DNA of 64,000 nucleotides from an uncultured Acidobacteriota bacterium (GCA_963809485.1 CAWEJX010000021.1:116335-180334), one strand, 5' to 3'. Numbered from the stretch's first letter, positions 344 to 48,737 are shown. Numbers and translations: made by a program. Notes: a model not told the origin generated them from the letters alone.

Positions 344-1693
344 TCAGCGGCTGCTCACCGCGCGCCTCACACGGCCCATGGCCTGCTCCAGGTCAATGTG
401 CGCCACATTGTAATTGTATAGCGCTGCAATCCGGTTGTCCCGGGCCCGCTCCAGGCGTGTTTGCGCATCGGTTACCTCCAGGCCGAAAGCGACGCCCGAC
501 TGGTAGCGCCGCTGGGCCTGCGCAAGTTCATTTTCGGACAACTGCAACCCGTTCTGCGCCACTTTAACCTGCTGCTCCGCAGAGCGCAAAGCATCCAGGG
601 CAAGACGCACATCGAGCTCGATCTGTTCTTTAAGGTCGTGGGTACGCACCATCTCCGCGCGGTACTGGGAGGCGGATTCGGCACGCCGGGCGTCCCGGCG
701 CCCGCCATCGAAGATGGGGAGCTTTAATAGGATTCCATAGGTTCGGGTAGGCAGAGAACTGTCGAAGCCGTTGCCGATAGTTCCATAATCCCCAAAAGCG
801 GACAAGGATGGCAACCTCTCCATTTTGGTGGCGCTGGCTGACAGCCGCGCGCTGATCTCACGCTCCTTTTGAGCTTTGAAGTCGGGCCTTTGATCAAACG
901 CCTGGGCCTTGGCCTCTTCAAGCGTCACAGGATCCACGGGCTTATAGCCGAGCTTGTCGGTGAGATCGAGCTCCACGCCCAGCTGCAGATTCATCACGCG
1001 CAACAACTGCAGGTTCGCACTGTGGCGCGTGTTCTCCGCCACCAGCAGGCGCTGCTCGTCATTGGCGAGTTGCACGCGGGCGCGCGTGATTTCGATTCCC
1101 GTTCCTGTGCCCGCGCTCTTCTGGTTCTCTGCCTGGGAGAGAAGCGCTCGGGACAGTGTAACGTTGGCCCGCGCGGTTTCGACATCCGCATCCGCGCGAA
1201 TGGCCGCAAGGTAGGCCCGGGCCACCGCGGCCGCCACCTGCTCTTCCGCGCTGGCCAGTTCCGATTCGGCAGCGGACACGCCTGCCCGTGAGGCCTGAAG
1301 CCTGCGTATTGAGCTGAAATCAAAAATGCTTTGCGTCGCGGAGAGACGCGCATCCATGACATTGTAGGGACCCACCAGTGTCGGGAAGGAAAAGGCGAAT
1401 CCCGGCAAGGTAGGTATCTGGAACTGCAATCCATAGGCCTTCAGATTCACAGTCTGATCGCGGTAGTTGAGGTAGGAAGAGATGTCCGGGAGCAAGGCGG
1501 CCCGCGCCTGCGCGGACTGTGACTTAGACTGCTTCAATGCTTCGCCCGACAACTGAATCCTGGCGTTCCCTTCGGGTGAGAGAGCGATTTCCACGGCACG
1601 CTTGAGGCTCAGGGTGAGTGTGCTGTTTTCCGGCGCCGGTTCGGCAGCCGGTCCCAGGGACGACAGGAGCAAAATAATCCACAGATGCTTCAT
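344..1693 (-). CDS. TolC-family outer membrane efflux protein
   Basis: Signal peptide, two OEP repeats (ARAALLPDIS; LPIFDGG; AQRRYQSG), 449 aa. Confidence 0.9.
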   Translation of the reverse strand: MKHLWIILLLSSLGPAAEPAPENSTLTLSLKRAVEIALSPEGNARIQLSGEALKQSKSQSAQARAALLPDISSYLNYRDQTVNLKAYGLQFQIPTLPGFAFSFPTLVGPYNVMDARLSATQSIFDFSSIRRLQASRAGVSAAESELASAEEQVAAAVARAYLAAIRADADVETARANVTLSRALLSQAENQKSAGTGTGIEITRARVQLANDEQRLLVAENTRHSANLQLLRVMNLQLGVELDLTDKLGYKPVDPVTLEEAKAQAFDQRPDFKAQKEREISARLSASATKMERLPSLSAFGDYGTIGNGFDSSLPTRTYGILLKLPIFDGGRRDARRAESASQYRAEMVRTHDLKEQIELDVRLALDALRSAEQQVKVAQNGLQLSENELAQAQRRYQSGVAFGLEVTDAQTRLERARDNRIAALYNYNVAHIDLEQAMGRVRRAVSSR

Positions 1694-2313
1694 GGGTTCA
1701 CCTCGATCTCTTTCTCCGGCCCGGCAACGGCGCGGAATCCATTTCCGGCGAATGCCACAAGGTGTCTGGCGACATCTATTGAAAGCTTGGGAGGAGCCTC
1801 CGCAAGGATTTCAGACCGCACGGATAGCATATGCGCCATGGCGCCAAGGGTAAAATGGACTTTCCAGGCCAACTCCTCCCTGGACATCTCCGGCAGCGCC
1901 CGGCTCATGGCGGACAGGAACCGGTCCAGCATCGGCTGGAACTGCCGCCGCGCGATTTCGGGCATCAGTCCCTCCGCATGCACTCTTCCCAACAGTCTGA
2001 TAAAGTCCGGGCTCTTTCCGGCCAGCATTATGGGCAGAATAAAAGCCTCGAGGATTTTTTCAATGCAGGCCGGCTGGGGAACTGCTTCCACTTCAAACTG
2101 TTCCAGCATCTCCAGACGGCGCTGGTTTATTGGTTCCGCCTTCCTCGAGACCACCTGATCCAGCAGGTTTTGTTTGGATCCAAAGTGATAGTGGATGGCT
2201 GCCAGATTGACGCCCGCCTTGGAAATGATGTGCCTTAGGGAGGTGGCGGAGTAGCCGTATTCTCCAAAAAGAAATTCCGCCGCATCCAAAATCCTCTCTC
2301 TTGTATTACTCAT
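1690..2313 (-). CDS. TetR-family transcriptional regulator (PsrA/CecR-like)
   Basis: TRERILDAAEFLF...TSLRHIISKAGVNLAAIHYHFGSK helix-turn-helix; 4-bp overlap with TolC. Confidence 0.92.
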   Translation of the reverse strand: MSNTRERILDAAEFLFGEYGYSATSLRHIISKAGVNLAAIHYHFGSKQNLLDQVVSRKAEPINQRRLEMLEQFEVEAVPQPACIEKILEAFILPIMLAGKSPDFIRLLGRVHAEGLMPEIARRQFQPMLDRFLSAMSRALPEMSREELAWKVHFTLGAMAHMLSVRSEILAEAPPKLSIDVARHLVAFAGNGFRAVAGPEKEIEVNP

Positions 2314-2340
2314 ACGAATGACTTAATCATACGTTTGATT
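2310..2340. promoter_or_regulatory. Putative TetR autoregulatory operator (tandem TCAWAC-G-WWTGA palindromes)
   Basis: AATCATACGTTTGATT (2325-2340) is a near-perfect palindrome; a second copy TCATACGAATGA overlaps the TetR start codon. Confidence 0.6.
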
Positions 2341-2363
2341 TAAAATCAACGGCTTTTTCAAGA

Positions 2364-2426
2364 GGGACAGCCACCAGTGTCCGCGCATTTATAACTAATG
2401 GGAGCGGGGACAGTGGTGGCTGTCCC
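2364..2426. repeat. REP-like inverted repeat
   Basis: gggacagccacca...tggtggctgtccc arms. Confidence 0.6.
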
Positions 2427-2431
2427 CCTTT

Positions 2432-2896
2432 GTGTGTCGCTATGAATTTGTGATGCGATACTCCAGAGAGAACAACCTTCCGAAGGCAGCCGAATATGCA
2501 CAACTCACGCGGCGGTCTGCCGGATTGGCGCAGAAACAGGACGAAAAGTCAGAGGAGCAGATTCGAAAAGTGCGCCGGGCCTGTCAGCACGTGATCGGCA
2601 GCAATCTGATGGAAAAGGGGAATTATGCCGAGGCGATTGCGGCCTTCAAAGAGGCTATCAAGGCCGAGAGGTATGCGGAAGGCTATTACAGAATCGGCGC
2701 ATGCCTGGATCAACAGAAGCAGGTCGAGGATGCAATGCTTTACTACGCCATGGCCGAGCTGGTTGACGGAGAGTCGGGATCCAAGGCAAAAGCCAGACTT
2801 GAAACTCTCTATAAGGTTCTCCACAACAACACACTGATCGGGATCGACAAGGTCTACCAAAAGGCAAAAGACGCTTTGGCCCAACCTTCCCTGTAG
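2432..2896 (+). pseudogene. TPR-repeat protein, probably a C-terminal fragment
   Basis: GNYAEAIAAFKEAIK...EGYYRIGACL TPR pattern; begins abruptly after the REP hairpin with no clear RBS. Confidence 0.5.
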
Positions 2897-2947
2897 CGTC
2901 GCATTCCAGGGGCGCAGCCTCAAACGGATCTGCCGTCAGCCTCCGGT

Positions 2948-3511
2948 TTATGTCTGTTTATCCAGAAGCACGGACACCGGGGCCGATTTTGCAATCGTGT
3001 TGAACACCGGCGAATATTTTATCCCGGTCCGGATCATCTCCTCTTTTTGCTCGTCGGAAACATCGGCGTCAATTTTGAAATAAACCCGGATGTCCTTGTA
3101 CCCTTTTGGGACCTCTTCCGATATTCCAAGAAAGCCGCGGAGGTCTATATCTCCTTCATATCTGGATTGTATTCCCCGGATTTTGATTCCTTTTGCAGAG
3201 GCGTGTGCGACCAGGCTTGTGGTAATGCATCCGGACAAGGCGACGAGAAGATACTCGACAGGATTGCTTCCCGCATTATTTCCCAGGAGTACCGGGGGTT
3301 CATCCATGTCGTAATCCACAGGCGCCCGGGAGTCGTCTTCCTTCAAGGCTCCGGAAAAATCCCTAACCGTCGCCCGGCAATGTGTTCCGCCGATCCATCG
3401 GTTGGCCGCCCGGAACTGGAATTTGGCGACTTCGGGATTGAGTTTCACAGCTTCGATCACGCTGAATAATTCGGTCACGTTCACCCCGTTGACAATTTTG
3501 CTTTCTGCCAT
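2948..3511 (-). CDS. OsmC-family protein
   Basis: VNGVNV...DEPPVLLG...NPVEYLLVALSGC...EGDIDLRGFLG...SPVFNT; good RBS (ggaaggagagg). Confidence 0.9.
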   Translation of the reverse strand: MAESKIVNGVNVTELFSVIEAVKLNPEVAKFQFRAANRWIGGTHCRATVRDFSGALKEDDSRAPVDYDMDEPPVLLGNNAGSNPVEYLLVALSGCITTSLVAHASAKGIKIRGIQSRYEGDIDLRGFLGISEEVPKGYKDIRVYFKIDADVSDEQKEEMIRTGIKYSPVFNTIAKSAPVSVLLDKQT

Positions 3512-3675
3512 GTCGATCCTCTCCTTCCCAGGATAATTTCCTACAGGAAGTTAATCTCAAGGCTGTCCGAGGCGCAAATCGGCAGAAACACGCAATTCAA
3601 AGTAGGTAGTTATACGTACTATGATCACTGCCGGTCGCCGGCATTGAATCCTCTTACAAAACTCCGCATTTCCCC

Positions 3676-3985
3676 TAATTAGTTTCTGTCGCGAAACTCG
3701 GGTTTTGTGAAAAAGCCAAATTTTTCAACCGTCAATAGGATATTTGATATTACATAGAAGCCGATAATTGGAGTCAGGCCGCGTAGCGGCCAGCTGAATT
3801 TAGCCAGGCCTTTTAAGGCCTGGAGCGAAAGGAGTTAAGTTTTCCGTCGCGTAGCGACGGCTGAATCTCAGGCGTCGCTACGCGACGCGCTGCTCGCTGT
3901 ACCATGGTTCCCGGCCTTGAAAGGCCGGGCTAAAATCATAGTGCCGCTACGCGGCACAAACCAGTTTCGCGACAGAAACTAATTA
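3676..3985. mobile_element. MITE with 23-bp perfect terminal inverted repeats enclosing a nested REP/REPIN palindrome
   Basis: taattagtttctgtcgcgaaact (3676-3698) and agtttcgcgacagaaactaatta (3963-3985); inner arms gccgcgtagcggc / gccgctacgcggc, caggccttttaaggcctgg / ccggccttgaaaggccgg, cgtcgcgtagcgacg / cgtcgctacgcgacg. Confidence 0.8.
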
Positions 3986-4528
3986 CATTTTGACCCGGCC
4001 CACAACGCTATTTTGATTTCATCGTTGCACGGATATTCCCTTACTGGTCGTCGTTCTTATGCTTCGGGTTGGTTGGATAGCAGCCTTTAGAGCTCAATAC
4101 CGCTCGACATTGTCTGGCGGTTTATTCCATTACTGCAATTTATACAGTTCCCATGGAGATTTTCCGCTGTAACCGCTTTTGCCTTTTCTTTACTGGCTGG
4201 GACCAATTGCGTTTTGGATATCACGGCGCTTGTGTCGCGTGCCTGTAATTCCCGGCAGAGCCTTATTCTCCTGGCTTATTGCAGAATACCTAGCGGCGCA
4301 GCTTTTTATCTTGCGAAAAGACGGAACGATAAAAAGTATTTGCTTTTTCCTCGTCCTTATTTATATATAGACATTCTAGGCATTCCCCCGGATTATCCAA
4401 CATGTGGATTTAAGGGCAAGCAATTTTGAAGGTTGAATTCATCTTCGATTGAGCGCCATTTTAAGTTATCATTAAAGCTGTTTTTTGCGACCAGCGGAAG
4501 CGCTGAGAAAAATGACGAGGGTAGGCAA

Positions 4529-5977
4529 ATGAACTCTTTAAATATTGACAAATTAAGAGAAATTGTCGGCGATGAAAATATTCGGGACAACAAAGCCGAC
4601 CTCTACGTTTATGGCTCCGATGCGTCCGTTCACGAAGCCATGCCGCAGCTAATCGTCCGTCCGCAAAACATCGAGCATGTCCAGGCGGTCATGCGCTACG
4701 CCAACAGTGAAAAGATCCCTGTGATCCCCCGCGGCTCCGGATCCGGCATGTGCGGGCAGGTTGTCCCCATTATGGGCGGCATCATCCTGGACATGAGGGC
4801 CATGAACCGCATCCTCGAAATCAATCCCCAGGATGGCTATTGCCGGGTGGAGCCGGGGGTGGTCGATGACGACCTCAACCGAGCCCTCAAACCCTACGGT
4901 GTCTTTTATCCGCCGACACCCGCCTCCAGCGTAATTGCCACCATCGGCGGCGAGATCGCCAACAATGCTTCCGGCGGACGCTCGGTCAAATACGGCGCCG
5001 CTCGCGACGCCATCCTCGCCGTAAAAGTAGTGATGGCCAATGGAGAATGCCTCTCCTTCGGATCCACCACCCGCGTCTCCGCTTCCGGCTACCCTATTGA
5101 GCGCCTGATGGTCGGATCCGAAGGGACCCTTGCAGTGATCGTCGAGGCGACCATGCGTTTTGTGCCCATCCCCAAAATGCGCTGCCTGGGCATCGCCAAG
5201 TTCAATGTGTTGTCCGAGGCCGGCGATGCTATCGCGGACGTCATGGGCGGCGGCTGCCAGCCCTCGATGCTCGAGCTCATCGACAAGATCGCCATCATCG
5301 CTGCCAATAAGGCCGCAAAACTCGGTCTGCCCGAGGTCGACGCGATCCTGCTTTTTGAAGCCGACGGCATGACTAAAGATGTTATTGATGTGGAAATGGC
5401 AAAGATTCTGGCCATCTGCGAGAAACACAACGGCTTTGGAATGGAAAGCAGCTACGACGAAAAGGAAAGAACACGGATCTGGGCAGCACGCGCCAAGCTC
5501 TTCCCCTCTCTCTCCAAGTATGATGAACGTCTTGCCTCCACCTCTCTGGCCGACGATATGGCCGTCCCGTTCTCCAAGATGGCGGCGACCGCCGACAAGA
5601 TTCACGAAGTGGCCGATAAGCATGGCCTCGTCATGACAGCTTACGGCCATTGCGGCGCGGGCTGCATGCACACCAAGATTTTGATGGACACCGACAAGGA
5701 ATTCCAATGGGAAGCGGCGCGCAAGGCGGTGGCCGAAATCTACGATTTTGTCCGTTCGGTCGGCGGCACGACTTCCGCCGAACACGGCATCGGGTTGTCA
5801 AAAGCCGCGGCTTTCAAAAAGGAAAAAGCAGCCACCCTGGATCTGATGCGCGCGATCAAGAAAGTCTTTGACCCGAACAATATTCTGAATCCGGGCAAAC
5901 TGATGGACGGCCCCGACGACTGGGTCGAAGCCACCAATCTACGATACCAATTACCAAAGCGGGAATACAATGACTGA
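4529..5977 (+). CDS. FAD-linked 2-hydroxyacid oxidoreductase (GlcD / D-lactate dehydrogenase family)
   Basis: PRGSGSG, ATIGGEIANNASG..SVKYG, GSEGTL, GH.GAGCMH, SAEHGIG, FDPNNILNPGK motifs; start chosen at MNSLNI after gagggtagg. Confidence 0.9.
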   Translation: MNSLNIDKLREIVGDENIRDNKADLYVYGSDASVHEAMPQLIVRPQNIEHVQAVMRYANSEKIPVIPRGSGSGMCGQVVPIMGGIILDMRAMNRILEINPQDGYCRVEPGVVDDDLNRALKPYGVFYPPTPASSVIATIGGEIANNASGGRSVKYGAARDAILAVKVVMANGECLSFGSTTRVSASGYPIERLMVGSEGTLAVIVEATMRFVPIPKMRCLGIAKFNVLSEAGDAIADVMGGGCQPSMLELIDKIAIIAANKAAKLGLPEVDAILLFEADGMTKDVIDVEMAKILAICEKHNGFGMESSYDEKERTRIWAARAKLFPSLSKYDERLASTSLADDMAVPFSKMAATADKIHEVADKHGLVMTAYGHCGAGCMHTKILMDTDKEFQWEAARKAVAEIYDFVRSVGGTTSAEHGIGLSKAAAFKKEKAATLDLMRAIKKVFDPNNILNPGKLMDGPDDWVEATNLRYQLPKREYND

Positions 5978-6913
5978 ACTTAACCAGATTAGAAAAATGG
6001 AAAGGCGCCCTCAACAAGTGCATCCGGTGCGGCTACTGTTACGAACACTGCCCGATCTACAAGTCCACCGGTGGGAAATCGACAGCCCTCGGGGCAAGCT
6101 GGTATTGCTGTATGGAATGCTCAGCGGAGAACTCGAGCCTTCCGATTATATCGCCAACAAGATTTTCGAATGTTTCCACTGCAACCGCTGCCAGAAGGCC
6201 TGCTCTTCGGGAGTGCCCATCCAGGACGTCTACAACGATGCCCGCGCTTTCTTCCTGGAATCCGGCTTCGACGTCGTCGGGACCACCTCGCAGACCGACC
6301 ATGATGTCTGCGCCCGCTGCCTGAATTGCGTGCGCATGTGCAAACACGAAGCCCGGAGTTTTGTCGACGGAAAAATCGTGACTGACCGGCTCAAGTGCCA
6401 GAGCTGCGGCAGTTGCCTGGATATCTGTCCGGAAAAGGGCGTCTACCATCCGCACCGGCTACGGCACCAATCCAAACGAGCTCATCGATCAGGTCCAGTC
6501 CTATTTCACCGATCCGGACAATCCCGATGCCAAAGCGGTCGTGTTCACCTGCGGCTATTCGAGCTATCCCGGTCTTCAGTCCTCCCGCTATGACAAATTC
6601 GAGATCAGCAAGGAATACAAGATACTGGTCACCGCCTGCAGCGGACGCCTGAAATCGACCACCGTGCTGGAATCCCTCGAACGCGGCGCCTGGGGCGTGC
6701 TGATCTGCTGCTGTCCCGAGGATGATTGCGAACACGGCGGAACCCCGAGGGTCAAGGCGCGCATGAAATCTCTGACCAGCACCCTGGAAGGATAGACATC
6801 AGACCCGAAACGCCTTCAGGTTGTCGAAGTCCCTCAGGGGAATCCCAAAAAGTTCACCGATTCCGCACAAAGTCTTTATGGATGAAATCCGGGGCCTCGG
6901 TCCTATCGTGTAA
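5970..6913 (+). CDS. Fe-S protein: four [4Fe-4S] motifs fused to an MvhD/FlpD [2Fe-2S] domain (frameshifted)
   Basis: Reassembled across frames: CIRCGYCYEHCP (hidden frame, ~6020), CFHCNRCQKAC, CARCLNCVRMC, CQSCGSCLDICP, then VVFTCGYSSYPG...TACSGRL...GAWGVLICCCPEDDCEHGG...DPKRL...FMDEIRGLGPIV*. Confidence 0.8.
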
Positions 6914-6925
6914 GGGAGAGTAGCC

Positions 6926-8190
6926 ATGATCTTGCGTGTTCCGTACGGAAAAGACGGCAAGCTTGAGGCCGAAATTGACGAACAACGACTCGCCGGCATC
7001 ATCGAGCCGAATGAGGTCAAGATCGGAGACGAAACCGAAGTGATTCGCCAGGCACTGGCCAATCCGATCGGCTCCAAAAGCCTGAGCGATTTTTTGAAGG
7101 GTGCGCGGGATGTCCTGTTCATTGTCAACGACCCGACCCGGCCTACTCCGACCGCCCGCGTGCTGGATATCATCGAAAAAGACATTTCCGGATATCCGAT
7201 CAGTTTCATAATCGCCACGCGGAGTTCATCGGGCTCCGACTCCGGAAGAATACCTGCAGATCTTTTCCGAAAGATATTACGGCAAATATAAAGACCGCAT
7301 CTTCGTCCACGACGGCCGGAAAGAGCGAAGTGGTGTACCTGGGCACTTCGAAAAACGGCACAGAGATGGGATCAACGAGCGGGGCGTCGATGCGCACAAA
7401 ATAGTGATCATCAGCTCCGTCGAGCCGCACTATTTTGCCGGCTACACCGGCGGACGTAAGTCTTTCCTGCCCGGGATCGCCTCCTATAAGACCATCGAGC
7501 AGAACCACAAGCTGGCGCTAAAACGTGAAGCGTGCGCGCTCAAGCTCGAGGGCAATCCGGTTCACGAGGACATGATCGACGCGCTCGGGACGGTCAAAAA
7601 GGAAATCTTTACCATCAACACCGTTCTCGACAAAAACCACCGCATCTATGCGGCGGTCGCCGGCGACATCTACGAATCCGATGGATGAGGCGGTTGCCAA
7701 GGCCGACGAGGTGTTTGCGGCAAAGATCCCGCAGAAGGCGGATATTGTGGTTTCGGTCGTCAAATTTCCCTCGGATATCGATCTTTACCAGGCTCAGAAG
7801 GCAATCGACAACGCGAAGTATGCTCTCGAGACGGCGGCATCCTCATCCTGGTCGCCAAATGCCGGAGCGGCATCGGCGATGAGTCCTTCGTGAACCTGCT
7901 GAGTTCGGCGAGCTCGCCCAGGGATGCGCTGGACTCGCATCGAGCAGAAATTTGTGCTGGGATACCACAAGGCAGCCAAAATGGCTGAAGTCGGCCTGTG
8001 GGCTCAGACCTGGGCCGTAACCGATCTCGATCCTCAATTGCTGAAAAAGATTTTTATCCGTCCCTTTTCATCTTTGCAGGCTGCCGTGGATGCTGCCCGG
8101 AAGGAAAAAGGCAAAGATGCAAAAGTACTGGTACTGCTGGACGGCAGTCTGACCATCCGCATGTTGCAGATTGAGCATTGGCACGTTTGA
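6926..8190 (+). CDS. larA: Nickel-pincer-dependent lactate racemase family (frameshifted)
   Basis: VPYGK, ALANPIGS, VNDPTRPTPT, ATGVHR (after indel), VEPHYFAGYTGGRKSFLPGIA, DIDLYQAQKA, GYHKA motifs spread over several frames. Confidence 0.88.
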
Positions 8191-8256
8191 ACCTTGCACG
8201 CCCAAAAATCCGACGCGCGTTGCCTGGAAATGTGCAAAAAAGGTGGAGGAAATGAA

Positions 8257-8922
8257 ATGATTGTAGGCGATCAAAAACCGATTGAAGACATCCTCTCGTA
8301 CCTCGACGACTACGAGCGTATCCTGCTGGCCGGTTGCCACGGCTGCGTGACCGTGTGCAGCGCCGGAGGCCAGAAGGAAGTGGACATACTGGCCAGCCTG
8401 ATAGAAATGGCTGGAAAAAACGAGGTAAGCCATACAAGGTCACTAAGATCACCCTGGAGCGCCAGTGCGATCCGGAATTTCTGATCGAGCTGGTCGAAAT
8501 GGCGAAAGAACACGATGTGATCTTATCGATGGCCTGTGGGGCCGGGGTCCAGTTGGTAGCCGAGAAGGCCGGTTCCGTGAAAGTCTTTCCGGCCTTGAAT
8601 ACCAACTTTATCGGTGTCATCGAGCAAAAAGGGCAGTGGGGTGAGCGCTGTCAGGCCTGCGGCGACTGCAAACTCTACCTGACCGGCGGCATTTGCCCGG
8701 TCACCCGTTGCTCGAAGAGCTTGATGAACGGTCCCTGTGGAGGGTCTCGCAATGGTGTATGCGAAGTCAACGCCGCAGACGCCCTGCGGCTGGCAACTGA
8801 TCATCGACCGGCTCGACGCGACGGGTTGTCTGGATCAGTACGAAACGATCCAGGACCCGGCGGATTGGTCGCGATCTCGCGACGGCGGTCCCCGCAAGCT
8901 GGTCCGGGAAGATCTGAAGTAG
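8257..8922 (+). CDS. metV: MetV, Fe-S/Zn subunit of methylene-THF reductase (frameshifted)
   Basis: MIVGDQKPIEDI...GCHGCVTVCSAGGQKEV; ERQCDPEF; SMACGAGVQ; ERCQACGDC...TGGICPVTRCSKSLMNGPCGG; PRKLVREDL. Confidence 0.88.
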
Positions 8923-8938
8923 ACAGGGATAGCGAGGA

Positions 8939-9863
8939 ATGGCGATGAACGAGAATAAATCGAATCTGAAAACCGTATTAAAATCCGGAAATTTCGCCGT
9001 CACCGCCGAGGCCGGGCCGCCGCGTGGCGCCAGACCCGAAGTGATGCGCGAAAAAGCGAAAATCCTGAAAGGCTACGTCGATGCCTGCAACGTGACGGAT
9101 AATCAGACCAGTGTGGTGCGCATGTGCAGCCTGGCAGCCTGCAAGATATTGCTCGAAGAAGGCCTCGATGCGGTGATGCAGATGGTCTGCCGCGACCGCA
9201 ACCGAATCGCCGCGCAGAGCGATATACTGGGCGCCGCTGCCCTCGGAATCTCCAACCTGCTCTGCCTGTCCGGGGATCATCAGATATTCGGCGATCATCC
9301 CCAGGCCAAAAATGTCTTCGACATAGACTCGATTCAGCTTATGAAAATCGCCAGACAGATGCGCGACGAGTCAAAATTCGCCGGCGGCAAGGACGTGGAT
9401 GGACCGCCTGATTTGTTTATCGGCGCCGCTGCTAATCCCTTTGCCGATCCTTTCAAAATCCAGGTCCCCCGCCTGGCCAAAAAGGTCGCAGCCGGCGCTC
9501 AGTTCATCCAGACCCAGTGCGTTTTTAACGTGGAAAAGTTCATCGAATGGATGAAAGGGGTCCGGGAGCGGGGACTGCACGAGAAGACCTATCATCCTGG
9601 CCGGGATCACGCCGATCAAGAGCCTTCCCATGGTCGAGTATATGGCAACCAAGGTCGCCGGCATGGACATTCCCGACGCGGTCATCGAGCGGATCAAAGG
9701 GGTAGAAAAGAAGAAGCAGAAGCAGGAGGGCATCAAGATAGCCGTGGAGACCATCCAGAGGCTGAAGGAGATCGAGGGCATCCGCGGAGTTCACATCATG
9801 GCCATCGAATGGGAAGATGCGGTGCCGGAAATAGTCCGGCAGGCCGGCCTGAAGCCGAAATAG
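8939..9863 (+). CDS. metF: 5,10-methylenetetrahydrofolate reductase MetF (one frameshift near 9590)
   Basis: FAVTAEAGPP, NVTDNQ, CRDRNRIA.QSD, LSGDH, KKVAAGAQFIQTQ, then GVHIMAIEWE in the shifted frame. Confidence 0.92.
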
Positions 9864-9900: not shown

Positions 9901-9957
9901 GCCACGGAATTCCACGGGTTATTGCTCATGAACCGTGTGAATCCGTGGCTTTTTTTG
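9901..9957 (+). terminator. Hairpin plus U-tract after metF
   Basis: gccacggaattccacgg...ccgtgtgaatccgtggc followed by ttttttt. Confidence 0.6.
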
Positions 9958-10122
9958 ATTTCAAACACAATCCATTCTGTGTAAATATCTTGGATGAAAG
10001 GTCGATTTTGAGCCGCCCCCGCGCTATTTGTTTTGAAAGTGAGGGTGAAGGATTGCTTGACTGAAGGCTCGGGACCTTTTTTAGCGGAAAAATTGCAGCA
10101 TCCGGATATACATGGGACCAGG

Positions 10123-10746
10123 ATGAAGAATCGCTTGGCATTCCCCAAAATCCGTTTAGACCTGACTCGCTGGCAGGCTTCCGGACGGCAATTCCTCGCC
10201 TACTCCCGGTTCCTTCTTCCCGCAAGTGTGCTGCTGGTGTTCCTGACCGTGCTAGCCGTCGGCTGGTTTACCCAGCCCGATTCATACGTGCGGGGCTATG
10301 CCCCCGAACAACCCATTCCTTATTCGCACGGGCTCCATGCGGGCACCCTGAGAATTCCCTGCCAGTACTGTCATTCGGGGGCAGTCAAATCGCGCCAGGC
10401 CGGAATTCCAAGCGTGCAAAAATGCATGAACTGCCACAGTTTGACCAAAACGGACAGCCCGCACATCAGGGAACTCGCTTCCCTGATTGCATCCGGTGAA
10501 CCGATGAAATGGAAAAGGGTTCACAACCTGCCGGACTATGCATATTTTGATCACAGGCCCCATGTGACCGCCGGCATTCTCTGTCAAACCTGTCATGGTG
10601 AAATTCAAACGATGGAGGTTGTGTCTCAGCAAATGTCCATGCGCATGGCAAACTGCCTGGGATGCCATCGGGAGCCGAAGGATGCGCTGCCCGCGGATTC
10701 CGGCATCGGGCGTGGACCTGAGCACTGCAATTCCTGCCATCGATGA
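10123..10746 (+). CDS. actA: Alternative complex III pentaheme cytochrome c ActA
   Basis: TM helix, GYAPEQPIPYSH..HAG, five CxxCH motifs (CQYCH, CMNCH, CQTCH, CLGCH, CNSCH), LPDYAYFDH. Confidence 0.92.
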   Translation: MKNRLAFPKIRLDLTRWQASGRQFLAYSRFLLPASVLLVFLTVLAVGWFTQPDSYVRGYAPEQPIPYSHGLHAGTLRIPCQYCHSGAVKSRQAGIPSVQKCMNCHSLTKTDSPHIRELASLIASGEPMKWKRVHNLPDYAYFDHRPHVTAGILCQTCHGEIQTMEVVSQQMSMRMANCLGCHREPKDALPADSGIGRGPEHCNSCHR

Positions 10747-10765
10747 GCCGAGAGGAACAAGCGCT

Positions 10766-13700
10766 GTGGATGATCCGATTTTCTTAAAAAAGGAAGGCCG
10801 ACATCCCCTCCGGTTCCGGTCCCTGAACGAATGGATCGGGCAGACGCAGGGAGACCCGGCCGCCACCGGAAATTTTGATGAGTTTTCCCCGGCGGCATTC
10901 GATCCCGTGGGGATGCCCGTCGAAATCCTCTCGCGGCGCAGGTTCCTCAGCCTTCTTTCCGCCTCCGCGACGCTGGCGTTGGGGACCTCTGCCTGCAGCC
11001 GCATCGACCGGCAGACCATCGTTCCATATACCAAGCGGCCGGAAGAAATAATTCCGGGCGTTGCCAATTATTATGCGAGCACGTTCCAGGAAGGCCTGAT
11101 CACCCAGGGAGTTTTGGTGAAAACCCGTGAGGGAAGGCCTATTCACGTGGAGGGGAATCCCGAGCACCCGCTTGGCATGGGGATAACGAGTTTACGAAGT
11201 GTCGCGGACCTGCTTGGCCTTTATGATCCGGACCGGCTGCGCGGGCCATCCCGAGCCGGAACCAGAAAAACCTGGGAAGAGGCCGGCCGGGAAATAGTCC
11301 GCGCTCTCCGGACGGCGCGTGACAGCGGATCTGCTGTGCTGCTTCTGACGGACGCCGTGGTTTCACCAACGCGAAGCGCGCTGATACAGGACTTGAAGAA
11401 AGCTCTGCCAAACCTGCACCATGCCGCCTGGGAACCGGCAGCCCCGCATGCGGAAATTTCAGCCGCAAAAGAGCTCTTTGGCGAAGCAGTGCCCGGCAGG
11501 ATGCGCCTGGACCGGGCGGATGTCATTGTGGCATTCGAGGCGGATTTTTTGGGATCCGAGGGCAACGATGCCGCCGCTATCCGGGATTTTGCCGCGCGGC
11601 GCAGCATTTCGGGGCCTGCCGACACCATGAACCGGCTCTGGGCATTCGAAGGCCGGATGAGCCTCACCGGGGCAAATGCGGATCACCGCATACCGGTTCG
11701 GCCATCCCGCATCGCGCCCGTGATATTTGCCATTGCCGGTCATCTGAACCAAAAGCTCGGAGTTGCCCTGCCGACGGGATTGAATGCCCGCAGCTTGAGT
11801 CCTTTTGCACTGGAAGCCGTTGCGGCCGACTCGGCCATCGAGCCCGAGCTGCTTCGCGCTCTATGTGACGATTTGAAGCGGGCGGGCAGGTCCGCCCTCG
11901 CTGTCGCCGGCCCGGCGCTGACGCAGGAAGCACACGTCGCCTGCCAGCTGTTGAATGCCATGCTGGGCGCCGAAGGCTATACGGTGGACGCCTCCATGTC
12001 GCTGCCGGTCCGGGATCTGCTGACCTATGCCGGGCTGCAGGGTCTTCTTGATGAAGCCGCCGGAGGCAAATTTGCGGCAGCGGTGTTTTGGGGCGCAAAC
12101 CCTGCCTATTCCTGTCCGCAGGCGTCTCTCTGGAAGGCGGCTGCGGCAAAAATCCCGTTTAAGATCAGGATCGGGCTGTACGAGGATGAGACCGCTCTCG
12201 ACTGCGGCTGGCGGCTGCCCGAGCATCACTGGCTGGAAGCCTGGGGCGATTTTGAGTGCTCTGCGGATATCCTCAGTCTGCGCCAGCCTGCGATGGGTGC
12301 GATACACGACACGCGCCAGGGAGAAGATATCCTTCTCTCCTGGCTGCGGGGGCTGGGAACGGATACTCCACAAAATTATCTGGAATATATGAAAGCCCGC
12401 TGGGAAAGGGAGGTTTATCCTGCAGGCAGCCCGGTTCGCTTCCCGGCCTATTGGAATGCGGCACTTCACGACGGAGTGGTTCTGCGGGAGGCGAAGCCTC
12501 GTCCCGGGCGCAATCCCCGTCCGGAAGTTCTAACGGACGCCATCGAACGATCGGCGGCCGCGCTGAAAAAAGCGCCCGCCTCAATCGAGCTGGTGCTGCA
12601 TCCGGCAGCCTCCGTATTTGACGGACGCTATGCCAACAATGGCTGGCTCAATGAACTGCCCGATCCCGTAACCAAAGCGACCTGGGGAAACCCCCTTCTT
12701 CTCTCCGTCTCCGACGCTGCCCGGCTTCAGTTGAAGGATGAAGACCAGGTCCGGATCACGGCGGGATCGGCAAGTCTGGATGCTCCCGTAATTGTTCAGC
12801 CCGGACAAGCGCCGAGCGTGGCCAGCCTGTCCCTAGGGTACGGTCGGAAGGCCGGCAACGTGGCTGCGGGAGTGGGGAACAACGCGTATGTGTTGGCCGA
12901 ATCCTCCGCCGCCTCGCCGCTGATCCGCGGAATCGCCAGGATCGAGTGTACGGGAGGCCGCAGGCCGGTTCCCAGGACGCAGGATCATTTTCGAATGGGG
13001 GGGCGCGACCTGGCCCGATCGCGGACCCTTTCCGAATTCGCACATGACGTCGCGCATGTCGACGCGGGGAAGCATCACGAACTGCATTCGCTGATTCCAC
13101 CGCAGCAGTTTCCGGAACACAGGTGGGGGATGGCCATCGACCTATCCGCCTGCGTCGGCTGCAGCGCCTGCGTTATCGCCTGTCAATCGGAAAACAACAT
13201 CCCGGTTGTAGGACCGGAGCGCATCATCGAGGGGCGGGAAATGCACTGGATCCGCGTCGATCGCTACTACGAAGGGGACCCTGCCAATCCGAAGGTCATC
13301 CACCAGCCGGTTCCGTGCCAGCATTGCGAGAATGCGCCCTGCGAAATCGTCTGTCCGGTGAATGCCACCACGCACAGTTCGGACGGGCTGAACCAGATGT
13401 CGTACAACCGCTGTGTGGGAACGCGCTACTGCTCCAACAATTGCCCGTACAAGGTCCGGCGTTTTAACTTTTTCGATTATACATCCATGAAGAAGCAGCC
13501 TGAAAATCTGGTATTCAATCCCGAAGTGACGGTGAGACCGCGCGGCGTCATGGAGAAATGCACCTTTTGCATCCAGCGCATTGACGACGCAAGGCAGCGG
13601 GCAAACAGCGAGGGCCGCCGCCTGCGGGACGGAGAAATCCTTCCGGCATGTGCGGTCGCCTGTCCGGCCCAGGCGATCGTTTTCGGCGACCTGAACGATT

Positions 13701-13831
13701 CCCGGAGCAAAGTCGCGGCGGCATCCCGCATGGGCCGCGGATATCACATGCTGGAGGACCTCGGCGTCAAGCCGGCGGTCACTTATCTTGCAGACATCTC
13801 CAATCCCGTATCCGGAAAGGGTAAGGCATGA
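10766..13831 (+). CDS. actB: Alternative complex III ActB (molybdopterin-like domain plus Fe-S domain)
   Basis: Tat signal SRRRFL, lipobox-like SAC, EGRPIHVEGNPEHP, DGRYANNGWLNELPDP, CVGCSACVIAC, CQHCENAPC, CVGTRYCSNNCPY, MEKCTFC; GTG start after agagga. Confidence 0.93.
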   Translation: MDDPIFLKKEGRHPLRFRSLNEWIGQTQGDPAATGNFDEFSPAAFDPVGMPVEILSRRRFLSLLSASATLALGTSACSRIDRQTIVPYTKRPEEIIPGVANYYASTFQEGLITQGVLVKTREGRPIHVEGNPEHPLGMGITSLRSVADLLGLYDPDRLRGPSRAGTRKTWEEAGREIVRALRTARDSGSAVLLLTDAVVSPTRSALIQDLKKALPNLHHAAWEPAAPHAEISAAKELFGEAVPGRMRLDRADVIVAFEADFLGSEGNDAAAIRDFAARRSISGPADTMNRLWAFEGRMSLTGANADHRIPVRPSRIAPVIFAIAGHLNQKLGVALPTGLNARSLSPFALEAVAADSAIEPELLRALCDDLKRAGRSALAVAGPALTQEAHVACQLLNAMLGAEGYTVDASMSLPVRDLLTYAGLQGLLDEAAGGKFAAAVFWGANPAYSCPQASLWKAAAAKIPFKIRIGLYEDETALDCGWRLPEHHWLEAWGDFECSADILSLRQPAMGAIHDTRQGEDILLSWLRGLGTDTPQNYLEYMKARWEREVYPAGSPVRFPAYWNAALHDGVVLREAKPRPGRNPRPEVLTDAIERSAAALKKAPASIELVLHPAASVFDGRYANNGWLNELPDPVTKATWGNPLLLSVSDAARLQLKDEDQVRITAGSASLDAPVIVQPGQAPSVASLSLGYGRKAGNVAAGVGNNAYVLAESSAASPLIRGIARIECTGGRRPVPRTQDHFRMGGRDLARSRTLSEFAHDVAHVDAGKHHELHSLIPPQQFPEHRWGMAIDLSACVGCSACVIACQSENNIPVVGPERIIEGREMHWIRVDRYYEGDPANPKVIHQPVPCQHCENAPCEIVCPVNATTHSSDGLNQMSYNRCVGTRYCSNNCPYKVRRFNFFDYTSMKKQPENLVFNPEVTVRPRGVMEKCTFCIQRIDDARQRANSEGRRLRDGEILPACAVACPAQAIVFGDLNDSRSKVAAASRMGRGYHMLEDLGVKPAVTYLADISNPVSGKGKA

Positions 13832-15234
13832 ATTCACGAACCGACTCCATGCCCGGACAGATCCTGCCGGAGTCCTTGAGGACGCCGCCCATTACGGCCG
13901 GCCCTGTCAGTCTTGCGGAACTGGATGAGCAGGTGCTATCGCCGGTCGAGCGGAAGCCGCCCAAGGCCTGGTTCTTCGCGTTTGCCTTCACCTCGGCGGT
14001 CACGCTCCTGGGGATGGGGCTCATCGGATACACGATTGCCACGGGCATCGGGGTCTGGGGCAACAACATTCCGGTCGCCTGGGGCTTCGACATCATCAAC
14101 TTTGTTTTCTGGGTGGGGATCGGTCATGCGGGGACGTTGATTTCGGCGATTCTGCTGCTGTTCAGGGCACGTTGGAGGAATGCGATTTCACGTTCTGCCG
14201 AGGCCCTCACCATATTCGCCATCCTGTGCGCCACCCTCTTTCCGCTTATCCACGTAGGCAGGCCCTGGCTCGCCTTTTGGCTTTTCCCCTACCCCAACCA
14301 GCGCGGCATCTGGCCTAATTTCCGTTCTCCGCTGATGTGGGACGTTTTTGCAGTGAATACATATTTCGCGGTTTCGCTCCTGTTCTGGTATCTCGGACTG
14401 GTGCCCGACTTCGCCTCCCTGCGGGAGAGAACGCAAAGCAAAATCCGCAAGTTCTTCTATTCCATTCTCAGCGCGGGCTGGCGCGGATCCGCCTCCCACT
14501 GGCACCACTACGAGAAGGCGTACCTCGTCATCGCCGGGCTTGCGACCGGTCTTGTCCTGTCGGTCCACAGCGTTGTTTCCTTCGATTTCGCGGTGTCGCT
14601 GGTCCCGGGCTGGCACATGACTATTTTTCCGCCATACTTCGTGGCCGGCGCAATTTTCGCCGGTTTTGCCATGGTGGTGATCGTCCTCGTCGTCGTTCGG
14701 ACCACGATGCGGCTGGAAAATCTCATCACCATGTATCACCTTGAGGTCATGAACAAAATCATACTGACCTGCTCCTGCCTCATGGGCTATTCCTATCTGA
14801 TGGAGGCGTGGACGGCCTGGTACAGCATGAATTCATACATCCACCATGCCTTCTGGCAATATGTCGCCGGTACTTACTGGTGGGCCGGCTGGACGACCAT
14901 TACATGCAATATTGTTATCCCTCAGCTGCTGTGGGTGCGCCGTCTGCGCAGGAGCTATCCGGTGATGATCTTTGTCGCCGTGGCGGTCACGGTGGGGATG
15001 TGGTTTGAGAGGTTCGTAATCATTGTGAGCTCGCTTCACCAGGATTTCCTGCCGTCCGCGTGGCACATATACAAGCCGACGCTTGTGGATTGCGGCATTC
15101 TGCTCGGCACCTTCGGGCTGTTCTTCACGCTGGTGCTCCTGTTCGCCCGGGTCCTGCCCGTTATTGCTTCCACGGAGATGAAAAGCGTTCTGCCGGGCAT
15201 GCAACCTCGCCGGGAAGGAGGGGCGCATGAATAG
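13828..15234 (+). CDS. actC: Alternative complex III ActC (NrfD-family quinol-binding subunit)
   Basis: WGFDIINFVFWVGIGHAGTLISAIL, HVGRPW, SPLMWD, SVHSVVSFDFA, PGWH.TIFPPYFVAGAI. Confidence 0.95.
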   Translation: MNSRTDSMPGQILPESLRTPPITAGPVSLAELDEQVLSPVERKPPKAWFFAFAFTSAVTLLGMGLIGYTIATGIGVWGNNIPVAWGFDIINFVFWVGIGHAGTLISAILLLFRARWRNAISRSAEALTIFAILCATLFPLIHVGRPWLAFWLFPYPNQRGIWPNFRSPLMWDVFAVNTYFAVSLLFWYLGLVPDFASLRERTQSKIRKFFYSILSAGWRGSASHWHHYEKAYLVIAGLATGLVLSVHSVVSFDFAVSLVPGWHMTIFPPYFVAGAIFAGFAMVVIVLVVVRTTMRLENLITMYHLEVMNKIILTCSCLMGYSYLMEAWTAWYSMNSYIHHAFWQYVAGTYWWAGWTTITCNIVIPQLLWVRRLRRSYPVMIFVAVAVTVGMWFERFVIIVSSLHQDFLPSAWHIYKPTLVDCGILLGTFGLFFTLVLLFARVLPVIASTEMKSVLPGMQPRREGGAHE

Positions 15235-16372
15235 AGAGGTCTTCTCCGTCCTGGGTATATTTGACAGCGCTCAGCAGTTGATGGACGCTATCGCGGCTGT
15301 TAAAGGAAAGGTGCCGGGCAAACTTGAAGCGTATACGCCCTATCCAATTCACGGAATAGAGCAGGCGCTGGGATTGAGGAAGTCCCCCATTGCGGGCATG
15401 GTCCTGGTGATGGGTTTTATCGGCGCGATATCCGCCATGGTCTTTGAGCTCTGGACCGAAGCCGTGGATTACCCGATGATGACCGCCGGCAAGCCGTTCT
15501 GGTCCTGGGAAGCCTTCGTCCCCATCATGTTCGAAGCCATGGTGCTTTTCGCCTGCTTCACTGCAGGCCTGGGCATGCTTTTCCTGCTGAACCGGCTGCC
15601 GATGTTCCGCCATCCGATGCTGAGCTCCAGGTCGATGCCGCTCGTCACCCGGGACAAATTTGCCCTTGCCGTCGAAACGGAGGGGCAGAGAGTGGATGTC
15701 GATGGGATCTCGCGGCTTCTGGAGTCGGTTGGCGCCCGTTCGATTGAGGTTGTCGAACAAATGCCGGCGGCAGGGCCTGCTTCACCCCAATTCCTGTTTC
15801 GATTCACCGTCGGGGTGATCGTTGCCTGTCTGGCCGCCGGATACCTGACCTATTGGGTCATCAAGCTTTATCCGCGCGCTATCCCGATGGTGCATATGCT
15901 CGATCAGCCCCGCCTCGATCCGCAGCGGGAAGATTCCTTCTTCCGGGACGGCGCTGGCATGCGCATGCCTGTAGCCGGCACCGTGGCACGCGGCCACATG
16001 CCCTATTTGATTCAAAGCGAAAACGAGGCGGATCTGCTGCCTAATCCTCTGCCCCGGACGGAGGAAGTGCTGAAACAAGGCCGCCTTACCTTCAACACCT
16101 ACTGCTCCGTCTGCCACGGCATCCTCGGCAACGGAAAGCCCACTCTTACGGCTGCTTACGGTGCAAAGCCTGCCAACCTGGTCTCCGAGTCGATCCGCGA
16201 TTATGCCGATGGAAGGCTATATCACGTCATCACGATGGGCAAAAATACCATGACCTCCTATGCCGCAGACGTGGGCAGGGAGGAACGCTGGACGGTGGTC
16301 CATTACGTGCGCGTGCTGCAGCGCGCCCTGAATGCACGGGACGAGGACATCCCTGAGGAGGCTCGAAAATGA
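15227..16372 (+). CDS. actDE: ActD (DUF3341) - ActE (monoheme cytochrome c) fusion
   Basis: EAYTPYPIHGI...GKPFWSWEAFVPIMFE followed by M.DQP...MRMPVAGTVARG...CSVCHG...RWTVVHYVRVLQRA. Confidence 0.88.
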   Translation: MNREVFSVLGIFDSAQQLMDAIAAVKGKVPGKLEAYTPYPIHGIEQALGLRKSPIAGMVLVMGFIGAISAMVFELWTEAVDYPMMTAGKPFWSWEAFVPIMFEAMVLFACFTAGLGMLFLLNRLPMFRHPMLSSRSMPLVTRDKFALAVETEGQRVDVDGISRLLESVGARSIEVVEQMPAAGPASPQFLFRFTVGVIVACLAAGYLTYWVIKLYPRAIPMVHMLDQPRLDPQREDSFFRDGAGMRMPVAGTVARGHMPYLIQSENEADLLPNPLPRTEEVLKQGRLTFNTYCSVCHGILGNGKPTLTAAYGAKPANLVSESIRDYADGRLYHVITMGKNTMTSYAADVGREERWTVVHYVRVLQRALNARDEDIPEEARK

Positions 16373-18425: not shown

Positions 18426-18488
18426 GGGTCCATGAAACAGGCTTTGGGGCTGGTACGGGGTCTGGTCTTGAGGCGACTCTCGGTCGTA

Positions 18489-18684
18489 GTCAGGCACCGC
18501 CGGCAAAACCGGGAGCAAGATTTGAACCGCTCAAAGCCGTTGGGGGAGTTATGCCGGTCTTGAACGCCGACCCTCAGCGAACAAATCGGCGTTTGTCAGC
18601 GCTTTTGTCAGCGTATCTCAGCGTTTCAAAATACAGAGCTGTCAAACTCCATCAGTCCCCCGGCAAAGCCTGGAATTTACTAAT
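18489..18684 (-). mobile_element. IS200-family-derived MITE, copy 1 (inside the respiratory operon)
   Basis: Shares both ends with copies at 54110-54314 and 62259-62631 (aaaatac.gagctgtcaaactc, ccggtcttgaacgc, ccgctcaaagc). Confidence 0.75.
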
Positions 18685-18743
18685 GGAAATAGAGCCTATC
18701 GGCTCCGCCAGGTAATGGTTTAGCGGAAGAGAAGGAGGCGGCA

Positions 18744-21792: not shown

Positions 21793-21803
21793 CGGAGTTT
21801 GCG

Positions 21804-22094: not shown

Positions 22095-22100
22095 GATGCC

Positions 22101-23045: not shown

Positions 23046-23101
23046 TCCGGATACACACGGACATCCCGCATTCCCGAAACCGGAAACAGAAACGGATCTG
23101 T

Positions 23102-27387
<4,286 letters not shown>

Positions 27388-28290: not shown

Positions 28291-28388
28291 CCAAAACCCT
28301 TTTCAAAAGCCTCACTTTTAGGTCAAGATCCCACCGAATTTGATGAATGGGGCGATTTTGACCCCGAAGTTTACATAAGCCATAATTA

Positions 28389-29608: not shown

Positions 29609-29682
29609 AAGGAATTAGGATTCAAGGAATTAGGATTCTATAAGGCGAGACAGGGTACGCTCCGAAATAAAGCGCTTGACGC

Positions 29683-30060: not shown

Positions 30061-30066
30061 AAAACC

Positions 30067-48736: not shown

Positions 48737-48737
48737 A

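Follow-up and report, generated by a model that had tools for sequence, protein, structure and literature searches.

A five-gene operon of an uncultured Acidobacteriota bacterium points to a 2-hydroxyacid dehydrogenase as a possible electron donor to a MetVF-type methylene-tetrahydrofolate reductase

Introduction

Which partner exchanges electrons with MetVF-type methylene-tetrahydrofolate (methylene-THF) reductases in the cell is unsettled in anaerobic bioenergetics. Ferredoxin is the only donor with which MetVF has worked in vitro, and it has been argued not to be the donor in vivo (PMC8760232; papers are cited here for those of their parts that were accessible). The accessible part of that review distinguishes four types of methylene-THF reductase (MTHFR), none of them with a hydroxyacid dehydrogenase as donor. 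A locus on a 64,000-nucleotide stretch of DNA from an uncultured Acidobacteriota bacterium (GCA_963809485.1, CAWEJX010000021.1:116335-180334; hereafter the window) raises the question of whether such a donor exists. There, between positions 4529 and 9863, the genes for MetV and MetF lie in one operon with those for a D-2-hydroxyacid dehydrogenase, an iron-sulfur (Fe-S) protein ending in an MvhD-like domain and a homologue of the racemase LarA. We tentatively read the five products as one soluble redox module, in which MetVF would be fed by the dehydrogenase and not by HdrABC or RnfC2; judged from sequence, we put the chance of this a little short of even. That the genes stay linked through rearrangements is the main argument for a functional tie, and the residues of the dehydrogenase and racemase point to malate as the more likely substrate.

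Results

The operon and its products

Six-frame reading, together with Pfam searches of the in-frame pieces of the window, confirms that the five-gene cluster is real and lies where the preliminary description had placed it, with all genes on the plus strand:

4529..5977, plus strand: GlcD/LctD-type FAD-dependent D-2-hydroxyacid dehydrogenase, 482 amino acids (Pfam FAD_binding_4 and FAD-oxidase_C)
5970..6913, plus strand: Fe-S 'wire' with MvhD-like domain (Pfam Fer4_8/Fer4 diclusters and FlpD)
6926..8190, plus strand: LarA-superfamily nickel-pincer racemase with malate-racemase (MAR) signature (Pfam Lar_N and LarA_C)
8257..8922, plus strand: MetV, small Fe-S subunit of MetVF-type methylene-THF reductase (PF12225)
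8939..9863, plus strand: MetF, flavin subunit of methylene-THF reductase (PF02219, MTHFR)
9933..9955, plus strand: terminator-like hairpin followed by T7, 70 nucleotides past the metF stop codon (terminator scan, weak feature)

The spacings are -8, 12, 66 and 16-22 nucleotides, in keeping with the gaps of -8 to 66 bp first described. A terminator after metF had been described too, and its hairpin and T7 are indeed present; however, the region holds 4 terminator-like sites against 8.2 expected by chance, and because the scan does not rise above chance the hairpin is weak evidence on its own. The operon had been said to lack Etf, HdrA and RnfC2, and this holds. Pfam found no Pyr_redox_2/HdrA or CCG protein within 4529-9863, and with them the HdrABC part of a type IV MTHFR is missing there; no Etf is encoded in the operon, the sole EtfAB pair of the genome lying on contig C5 at 29898-31165. 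The host genome (6.04 Mb in 21 contigs) has an estimated completeness of 95.7% and a contamination of 7.3%.

MetV and MetF together are, by sequence, a predicted MetVF-type methylene-THF reductase. The MetV piece in the window matches PF12225 at 1.1e-25, its intact orthologues have 221 amino acids, and 13 Cys are invariant in 20 MetV sequences. The MetF pieces cover positions 3-199 and 203-287 of the 287 of PF02219, which places them in the MTHFR family; an intact MetF orthologue matches the NCBIfam MTHFR models, all below their equivalog cut-offs. The order metV-metF is kept in the window and in its relatives.

The wire consists of a GlcF-N/HdrC-like part with two [4Fe-4S] clusters, a ferredoxin-like part with two more and the MvhD-like domain. 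An intact orthologue (P0001, 313 amino acids) carries four CxxCxxCxxxC motifs; in NCBIfam searches its residues 12-92 resemble the GlcF N-terminus (GlcF residues 20-99) and its residues 97-312 the C-terminal ferredoxin and MvhD tail of HdrA2. FlpD (PF02662) matches the piece in the window at 7.2e-19, and the solved MvhD chains 9sw2_D and 5odc_D match the wire. Across 19 diverse members, 16 + 4 Cys are invariant, the four being those of the MvhD domain, where they align with four of the six Cys of solved MvhD and are candidate [2Fe-2S] ligands. The wire would in effect be a GlcF whose CCG domains have been swapped for a protein-docking tail.

Recurrence of the cluster in other genomes

The operon DNA was searched for in 24 genomes of the same genus. 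Dehydrogenase, wire and racemase (the triad) are colinear with MetVF on one contig in 16 of them; in four the operon is split at contig ends, two carry the triad on a contig without MetVF (G008, G014) and two have neither (G009, G016). One further entry of this search, G034, is an unpublished genome and supports none of the claims made here. For a wider view, a profile of the 19 diverse wire proteins was run against species-representative genomes, which yielded 287 relatives; the best 80 loci were kept and scanned by tblastn with the five reference proteins. These loci are phylogenetically clustered and the related ones are not independent, so their counts are descriptive and carry no hypothesis test.

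The triad is complete in 74 of the 80 loci. Four of the others have no LarA homologue (two of these at contig ends) and two, at contig ends, no dehydrogenase. Linkage to MetVF could not be judged in 23 of the 80; MetV and/or MetF lies within the locus (≤8 kb) in 41 of the 57 evaluable ones, in three arrangements. By their labels, the carriers are Acidobacteriota, Myxococcota, Planctomycetota, metagenome-assembled genomes (MAGs) labelled 'Pseudomonadota', and Thermodesulfobacteriota, and they include the cultured Desulfocicer vacuolatum DSM 3385 (two copies) and Desulfamplus magnetovallimortis.

MetV and MetF follow directly downstream on the same strand in Acidobacteriota, in Myxococcota and in a Planctomycetota MAG. 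Two MAGs (L028, L031) have the order GlcD-FeS/MvhD-MetV-MetF with a 17-nucleotide gap and no racemase, which parallels the HdrA-MvhD-MetV-MetF order of a cluster on contig C3 of the genome studied here. In D. vacuolatum DSM 3385 (L087) and a Desulfamplus MAG (L046) the genes run PFOR-x-MetV-MetF-GlcD-FeS/MvhD-LarAH on one strand, PFOR being pyruvate:ferredoxin oxidoreductase. MetVF is convergent with the triad in 11 loci, four of them established by Pfam or by the MetF tree; in L052 and L043 the facing cluster is MetV-MetF-FAD protein-HdrA-C-terminus/ferredoxin/MvhD, a layout that tblastn suggests for nine further loci. A link that survives such rearrangements suggests a functional tie and is our main argument for one. 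The synteny check proposed at the outset thus came out in favour of a cluster that is conserved in the genus, with the MetVF link recurring across phyla in varied arrangements.

The neighbourhoods of some triads hold further genes. Eight Desulfobacteraceae-type loci (L052, L043, L071, L045, L065, L066, L083, L088) have, upstream of the triad, two genes for RACo-like reductive activators of corrinoid proteins, located at about 800-6300 on the minus strand, opposite to the triad. Beside them lies a formiminotransferase-cyclodeaminase gene in L065, L071, L083 and L088 and a DUF1638 gene in L052. Through these neighbours the triad is linked with corrinoid and one-carbon metabolism, also in loci where MetVF does not adjoin it. 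L065, a Desulfobacula MAG, also encodes EtfA, EtfB and a CCG-domain protein of 687 amino acids, convergent to the triad (10293-14181, minus strand); these are another possible electron outlet.

Malate as the more likely substrate

The preliminary description took the LarA homologue for a lactate racemase, a reading that the sequence does not bear out. Among NCBIfam models the LarAH6 malate racemase NF052593 fits it best (397.6 bits, cut-off 500), about 107 bits ahead of the lactate racemase model Ni_dep_LarA (NF033504; 290.5 bits, cut-off 460), and its best solved relative is the malate racemase Mar2 (6d6z, 1.9e-75). An alignment by phmmer to Lactiplantibacillus plantarum LarA recovers the superfamily residues: catalytic His108 and His174, Lys184, which tethers the nickel-pincer cofactor, and the nickel-binding His200. 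LarC, needed for synthesis of this cofactor, is encoded in the genome. At LarA1 positions 175, 176, 358 and 359 the homologue has Y-F-H-K, and H-K stands at the last two of these (W358/T359 in LarA1) in 70 of the 70 loci covering the site. Lactate racemases have F, F, W and E/Q at the four positions, whereas malate racemases have H/Q and K at 358/359 (PMC11770544). By both score and residues, the homologue does not resemble a lactate racemase.

The dehydrogenase belongs with the VAO/PCMH-family 2-hydroxyacid dehydrogenases by its FAD_binding_4 and FAD-oxidase_C domains and by the Arg, His, His and Glu-His of subsite A. Mapped by motif to Arg347, His398, His405 and Glu442-His443 of mouse LDHD, these (R, H...H, EH) are conserved in 75-76 of 77 loci. 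Around them, RxKLF is conserved in 73 of 77 loci and HTK in 75, the other two not covering the motif. The Lys of HTK takes the position of Ile407 in mouse LDHD and Asn443 in human D2HGDH; a second Lys stands two residues past the catalytic Arg (RxK) in all 76 loci covering that motif, a Phe replaces LDHD Trp351 and a small residue occupies the position of Ser365, all mapped by motif and not by structure. Subsite B of LDHD is hydrophobic (Trp351, Ser365, Ile407), while that of D2HGDH, an enzyme for D-2-hydroxyglutarate and D-malate, carries positive charge (Thr390, Lys401, Asn443; PMC10589216).

Genes of malate and oxaloacetate metabolism occur near the cluster in two other genomes. In a Syntrophorhabdaceae MAG (L023), DctM, malic enzyme and an OadA/PycB-like carboxylase subunit are encoded directly upstream of the cluster (1649-6422), and in a same-genus genome an NAD-type malate/lactate dehydrogenase and a citrate synthase follow right after metF. 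Because of the racemase signature, the pocket lysines and this gene context, we rank malate, or a close 2-hydroxy-dicarboxylate, as a more likely substrate than lactate.

Were lactate the substrate, LarA would interconvert L- and D-lactate, the LctD-like enzyme would make pyruvate and the electrons would reduce methylene-THF in acetogenic lactate use. The best solved relative of the dehydrogenase orthologue is indeed LctD of Acetobacterium woodii (7qh2_C, 7e-71), followed by a glycolate oxidase and mitochondrial D-lactate dehydrogenase, so that the closest solved relative is a lactate dehydrogenase and lactate or another hydroxyacid stays in play. LarA-family enzymes can be promiscuous (PMC11770544), and the homologue of the operon scores below the curated cut-off of every NCBIfam model. 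Set against this are the H-K in place of W-E/Q in every covered locus, the lead of the LarAH6 model, conserved lysines where the LDHD pocket is hydrophobic, the malate/oxaloacetate genes and the lack of an acetyl-CoA synthase match described below. We regard lactate as unlikely, and allow it that much because the racemase stays under all curated cut-offs and PFOR heads the operon in two Desulfobacteraceae loci (L087, L046).

Two side observations concern the same families. This genome has five LarA-family loci in all besides the studied one; on its contig C7 (424852-437316), two further LarA homologues have a small corrinoid protein gene less than 13 kb away. In L023, MetV is followed by TauE, a CdhD-like fragment and DctP (11009-14957), with no MetF there.

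Frameshifts in the assembled operon

As assembled, the operon is interrupted, and the preliminary description was right that its indels need correction. Against an orthologous contig of a same-genus genome (G006, 88% identical) we counted 19 isolated 1-nucleotide indels between 5949 and 9593, 11 insertions and 8 deletions. Seventeen are coding: one in the tail of the dehydrogenase gene, which is intact but for its last ~9 codons, shifted by a 1-nucleotide deletion at 5949; six in the wire gene (5982, 6072, 6445, 6790, 6803, 6871); seven in larA (7218, 7323, 7371, 7678, 7830, 7935, 8157); two in metV (8413, 8777) and one in metF (9593). They are confined to 3.6 kb. In the wide alignment to G006, 14 isolated non-triplet indels fall inside 6072-9593, against four (2438, 10110, 10751, 18725) in the ~19 kb aligned outside the 5.6-kb operon block, which rules out frameshifting as a property of the assembly as a whole.

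The reading frames nevertheless look maintained. All five genes are open in all six orthologous loci examined, with first-start reading frames of 476-490, 313-330, 414-426, 221-237 and 308-312 amino acids in operon order. Synonymous and nonsynonymous codon differences number 62/12 in the wire gene, 92/25 in larA, 74/40 in metV and 86/29 in metF, and 86/36 in the intact dehydrogenase gene. Because the same-genus orthologues are intact and substitutions are still biased towards synonymous ones, the breaks most likely come from a faulty consensus at this locus; failing that, they would be very recent. Contigs of related strains from four soil and wetland runs, aligned to the stretch, show small indels at nine places, each coinciding with an indel place from the G006 comparison. 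Among the indexed sequencing runs, none contains over 8% of the sequence words sampled, and no RNA run is listed.

That the four downstream genes are real pseudogenes of a decaying operon in this strain is, in our judgement, very improbable. It would fit the restriction of the 17 coding frameshifts to 5949-9593 when the other ~19 kb has only four isolated non-triplet indels, and the soil and wetland contigs belong to related strains and not to the source sample, a difference that leaves some room for real frameshifts. Yet every indel is exactly 1 nucleotide long, the 11 insertions and 8 deletions lack a deletion bias, and relaxation is not seen, third-position and synonymous bias matching those of the intact neighbour gene; 7.3% contamination over 21 contigs is also compatible with a locally poor consensus.

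One-carbon metabolism of the genome

The preliminary description set the operon in the frame of acetogens, which does not fit. CdhC/acetyl-CoA synthase (ACS) is unmatched in this genome and matched in only seven of the 30 genus genomes searched (unmatched in 22 of the 29 others); it is likewise unmatched in twelve operon-bearing relatives, one of them a one-contig genome. Since ACS is unmatched here and in those 22 genomes, coupling to acetogenesis is not a general explanation, and Wood-Ljungdahl coupling is ruled out as a general rationale in the genus. In a preprint on family UBA6911, most of the genus-UBA6911 genomes studied are reported to have the full Wood-Ljungdahl pathway (10.1101/2021.04.09.439258); the accessible part of the preprint makes no mention of the five-gene cluster. 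Formate-tetrahydrofolate ligase (FTHFS) is present in our genome, as are a pterin-binding methyltransferase adjoining a small corrinoid protein and several more corrinoid proteins.

MetF/MetV loci number at least six in the genome, and their redox neighbours differ from one to the next. Besides the operon they are (L091-L095):

C3:1-9000: HdrC-HdrB-GltD/HdrA fusion (1499 amino acids)-MvhD-MetV-MetF
C17 (C17 loci at 134000-142000 and 146000-150000): second HdrCB-GltD/HdrA-MvhD-MetV(F) cluster
C17, second site: sigma54 activator-MvhD-like-MetF-like-two glutamate-synthase-like proteins
C7:143000-150000: aldehyde:ferredoxin oxidoreductase-ferredoxin-MetF, with MetV nearby
C4:57800-62400: MetF-MetV fusion of 657 amino acids beside a URO-D-type methyltransferase

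The proposed look for hdrA elsewhere in the genome was therefore rewarded, with two HdrA-MvhD-MetV(F) clusters on C3 and C17. The series suggests that MetF/MetV is a reusable module joined to alternative redox partners, the studied operon being one such combination.

Discussion

A possible route for the electrons

In the module that we tentatively propose, the MAR-type LarA homologue would use its nickel-pincer cofactor to interconvert the two enantiomers (L and D) of a 2-hydroxy-dicarboxylate, malate being the likeliest, and the GlcD/LctD-type flavoenzyme would oxidize the D-form to the 2-oxoacid (oxaloacetate). From its FAD, two electrons would travel along five clusters of the wire: those of the GlcF-N-like dicluster, then those of the ferredoxin-like one and last that of the MvhD-like domain. 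This domain would dock on MetV, as the stand-alone MvhD presumably does in enzymes of the HdrCBA-MvhD-MetVF type, and the MetF flavin would reduce methylene-THF to methyl-THF. Equally plausible is the reverse: in genomes with corrinoid methyltransferases and no ACS match, such as this one, methyl-THF could be oxidized with the oxoacid as acceptor. Oxoacid couples lie at about -170 to -190 mV, the oxaloacetate/malate couple at about -170 mV. For methylene-/methyl-THF the figure is -200 mV (PMC8760232). The two couples being nearly isopotential, the module should be reversible. The docking of MvhD on MetV is suggested by analogy, the order hdrA-mvhD-metV-metF (PMC8760232) corresponding to dehydrogenase-[4x FeS-MvhD]-(racemase)-metV-metF. 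The passage of electrons from dehydrogenase to MetVF is thus something that we infer from gene order; substrate, complex formation and direction have the same standing.

Several observations count against this proposal. Mutual binding of dehydrogenase, wire and MetVF is a prediction from gene order, and a complex prediction for MetF, MetV and the wire (0.21, 0.40 and 0.02 against a mark of 0.32, run without controls) speaks neither for nor against it. Without ACS, methyl-THF has no obvious catabolic sink in this genome. MetVF is absent from 16 of the 57 evaluable loci despite flanks of at least 3 kb on both sides, mostly from Desulfobacula and Desulfotignum and from one Spirochaetia MAG, so the wire must also serve partners in trans. 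In Desulfobacteraceae the neighbouring MetVF often belongs to a MetV-MetF-HdrA-like-MvhD cluster with an MvhD of its own. In a tree of 37 MetF hits (coverage at least 85%, no stop), triad-linked and Hdr-linked copies are intermixed in that family, while Acidobacteriota and Myxococcota copies form an unresolved polytomy; a dedicated clade of triad-linked MetF is ruled out in Desulfobacteraceae by this intermixing.

Much of this would suit a shared hub, in which the dehydrogenase with its wire and MetVF would not exchange electrons directly. Each would instead connect to a third partner encoded elsewhere, an HdrA-type flavoprotein or another acceptor, and the genes would be neighbours because the electrons on both sides, at about -200 mV, require one common outlet, confurcating or respiratory. 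Classically, MvhD is the adaptor to HdrA, as in the matched solved Mvh-Hdr complexes, this genome has its two HdrA-MvhD-MetV(F) clusters, the triad abuts MetV-MetF-HdrA-like-MvhD in Desulfobacteraceae, and the 16 triad-only loci need some other partner in any case. We still think a hub unlikely, if a serious contender: the Hdr clusters have their own MvhD, the five-gene operons (four-gene in L028 and L031) are tightly spaced and contain no HdrA, and their X-MvhD-MetV-MetF order is that of the Hdr-type clusters, with dehydrogenase and ferredoxin domains replacing HdrA. Simple co-location is less probable again, indeed improbable. MetVF would then be fed by ferredoxin (type II), the dehydrogenase and wire would deliver to ferredoxin or another carrier, and the genes would merely be co-regulated within C4-dicarboxylate and one-carbon metabolism. 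It is favoured by the use of reduced ferredoxin by MetVF alone in vitro (PMC8760232), by the PFOR gene in the same operon in L087 and L046, and by the Syntrophorhabdaceae locus that has MetV without an adjoining MetF. However, an association seen in three arrangements and five phyla is far above the ~1% estimated for a few MetVF loci per 5-Mb genome, and electrons from a 2-hydroxyacid at about -170 to -190 mV cannot reach ferredoxin unless their transfer is coupled.

The module of dehydrogenase, wire, racemase and MetVF could also, as a long shot, be half of a malate/oxaloacetate redox loop that handles methylene-/methyl-THF without reacting directly with NAD(H). Malic enzyme would put NAD(P)H electrons onto pyruvate and CO2 to give L-malate, the racemase would convert this to D-malate, and the complex of dehydrogenase, FeS-MvhD and MetVF would pass the electrons to methylene-THF. 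The ~23 kJ/mol of the overall NADH:methylene-THF reaction would be freed in oxaloacetate decarboxylation, where a membrane decarboxylase could capture it in a sodium gradient; run backwards, the loop would oxidize methyl-THF at the expense of pyruvate carboxylation. If true, this would add a new, fifth type to the methylene-THF reductases and offer a possible explanation of how their reaction is linked with energy conservation.

Other genes of the window

Directly past the operon, at 10033-24025 on the plus strand, lies an alternative complex III cluster, with genes for a multihaem ActA-like protein, an ActB-like protein of 1078 amino acids, an NrfD-type ActC and ActD, followed by SCO1, cytochrome c oxidase subunits I and III and a UbiA-type haem O synthase. 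This block of ~14 kb is syntenic in G006. Because of it, the organism appears to combine oxygen respiration with many enzymes of oxygen-sensitive type. Positions 27600-35400 have a low GC content (0.47-0.52, against 0.55-0.61 in most other 2-kb bins) and hold a truncated phage-type integrase (28766-29260), a DUF4143 protein and several open reading frames without a Pfam match; the stretch may be a mobile-element remnant. On the minus strand at 47609-50111, a protein like Complex1_49kDa/NiFe-hydrogenase large subunits and an Oxidored_q6 small-subunit-like protein are encoded, a pair resembling either a membrane hydrogenase of group-4 type or a complex-I-like module.

Comparison with known systems

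We found no description of a hydroxyacid-dehydrogenase-linked MetVF in the full-text literature, a scope that leaves bioRxiv supplements and subscription journals outside; the accessible parts of the Desulfobacterium autotrophicum genome paper and of papers on deep-sea Chloroflexi and the LarA superfamily describe none. Genes of COG0277 and COG0247 are known to occur near several groups of LarA homologues (PMC7583248).

The closest counterpart is the type IV HdrCBA-MvhD-MetVF enzyme of Moorella thermoacetica (PMC8760232), which likewise has MetV and MetF, an MvhD module right before metV and an input module upstream. In contrast, the operon has neither HdrABC nor an NADH site; its input is a VAO/PCMH-family 2-hydroxyacid dehydrogenase, its MvhD forms a fusion with four [4Fe-4S] motifs, and a racemase gene stands in between. 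With Ldh-EtfAB of A. woodii (LctBCD, PDB 7qh2) it shares the pairing of an LctD-like FAD dehydrogenase with a LarA-family racemase, there presumably LctF of the lct operon, and the common problem of oxidizing a hydroxyacid at about -190 mV. Here, EtfAB is replaced by the Fe-S/MvhD wire and MetVF, and the racemase carries a malate and not a lactate signature. Glycolate oxidase GlcDEF and the GlcD plus GlcF-like D-lactate dehydrogenases of sulfate reducers also place a GlcD-like flavoprotein beside a GlcF-N-like protein; unlike GlcF/HdrD, the wire has no CCG domains, but a ferredoxin domain and MvhD as in the C-terminal tail of HdrA2.

The racemase resembles Mar2/LarAH6 (6d6z; PMC7583248, PMC11770544) in its H-K, its catalytic His, His and Lys and its nickel-binding His, but stays below the family cut-off (397.6 against 500 bits), its substrate being a prediction, and at the first two selectivity positions it has Y-F, like 2-hydroxyglutarate racemases. 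From methanogen MvhAGD-HdrABC (PDB 5odc, 9sw2) the operon retains an MvhD-fold domain with four of the MvhD Cys, and differs in having no hydrogenase or HdrA and in the replacement of two of the six Cys (Ala, Ser).

Set beside these systems, the arrangement would be a fifth way of wiring MetVF. It joins the reductase, within one operon, to a specific substrate dehydrogenase and a connector of its own. Since this operon occurs in several phyla, and in D. vacuolatum DSM 3385, a culturable sulfate reducer, the hypothesis can be put to a direct test with four or five recombinant proteins. It would extend the idea that MvhD-tailed ferredoxins are general plugs between organic-acid oxidation and Hdr, Mvh or MetVF machinery, and would give a physiological role to a large malate racemase group so far without context. 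It also flags a metabolism of widespread soil and peat Acidobacteriota (UBA6911-like) whose genes are misannotated as 'lactate racemase + glycolate oxidase + hydrogenase subunit'.

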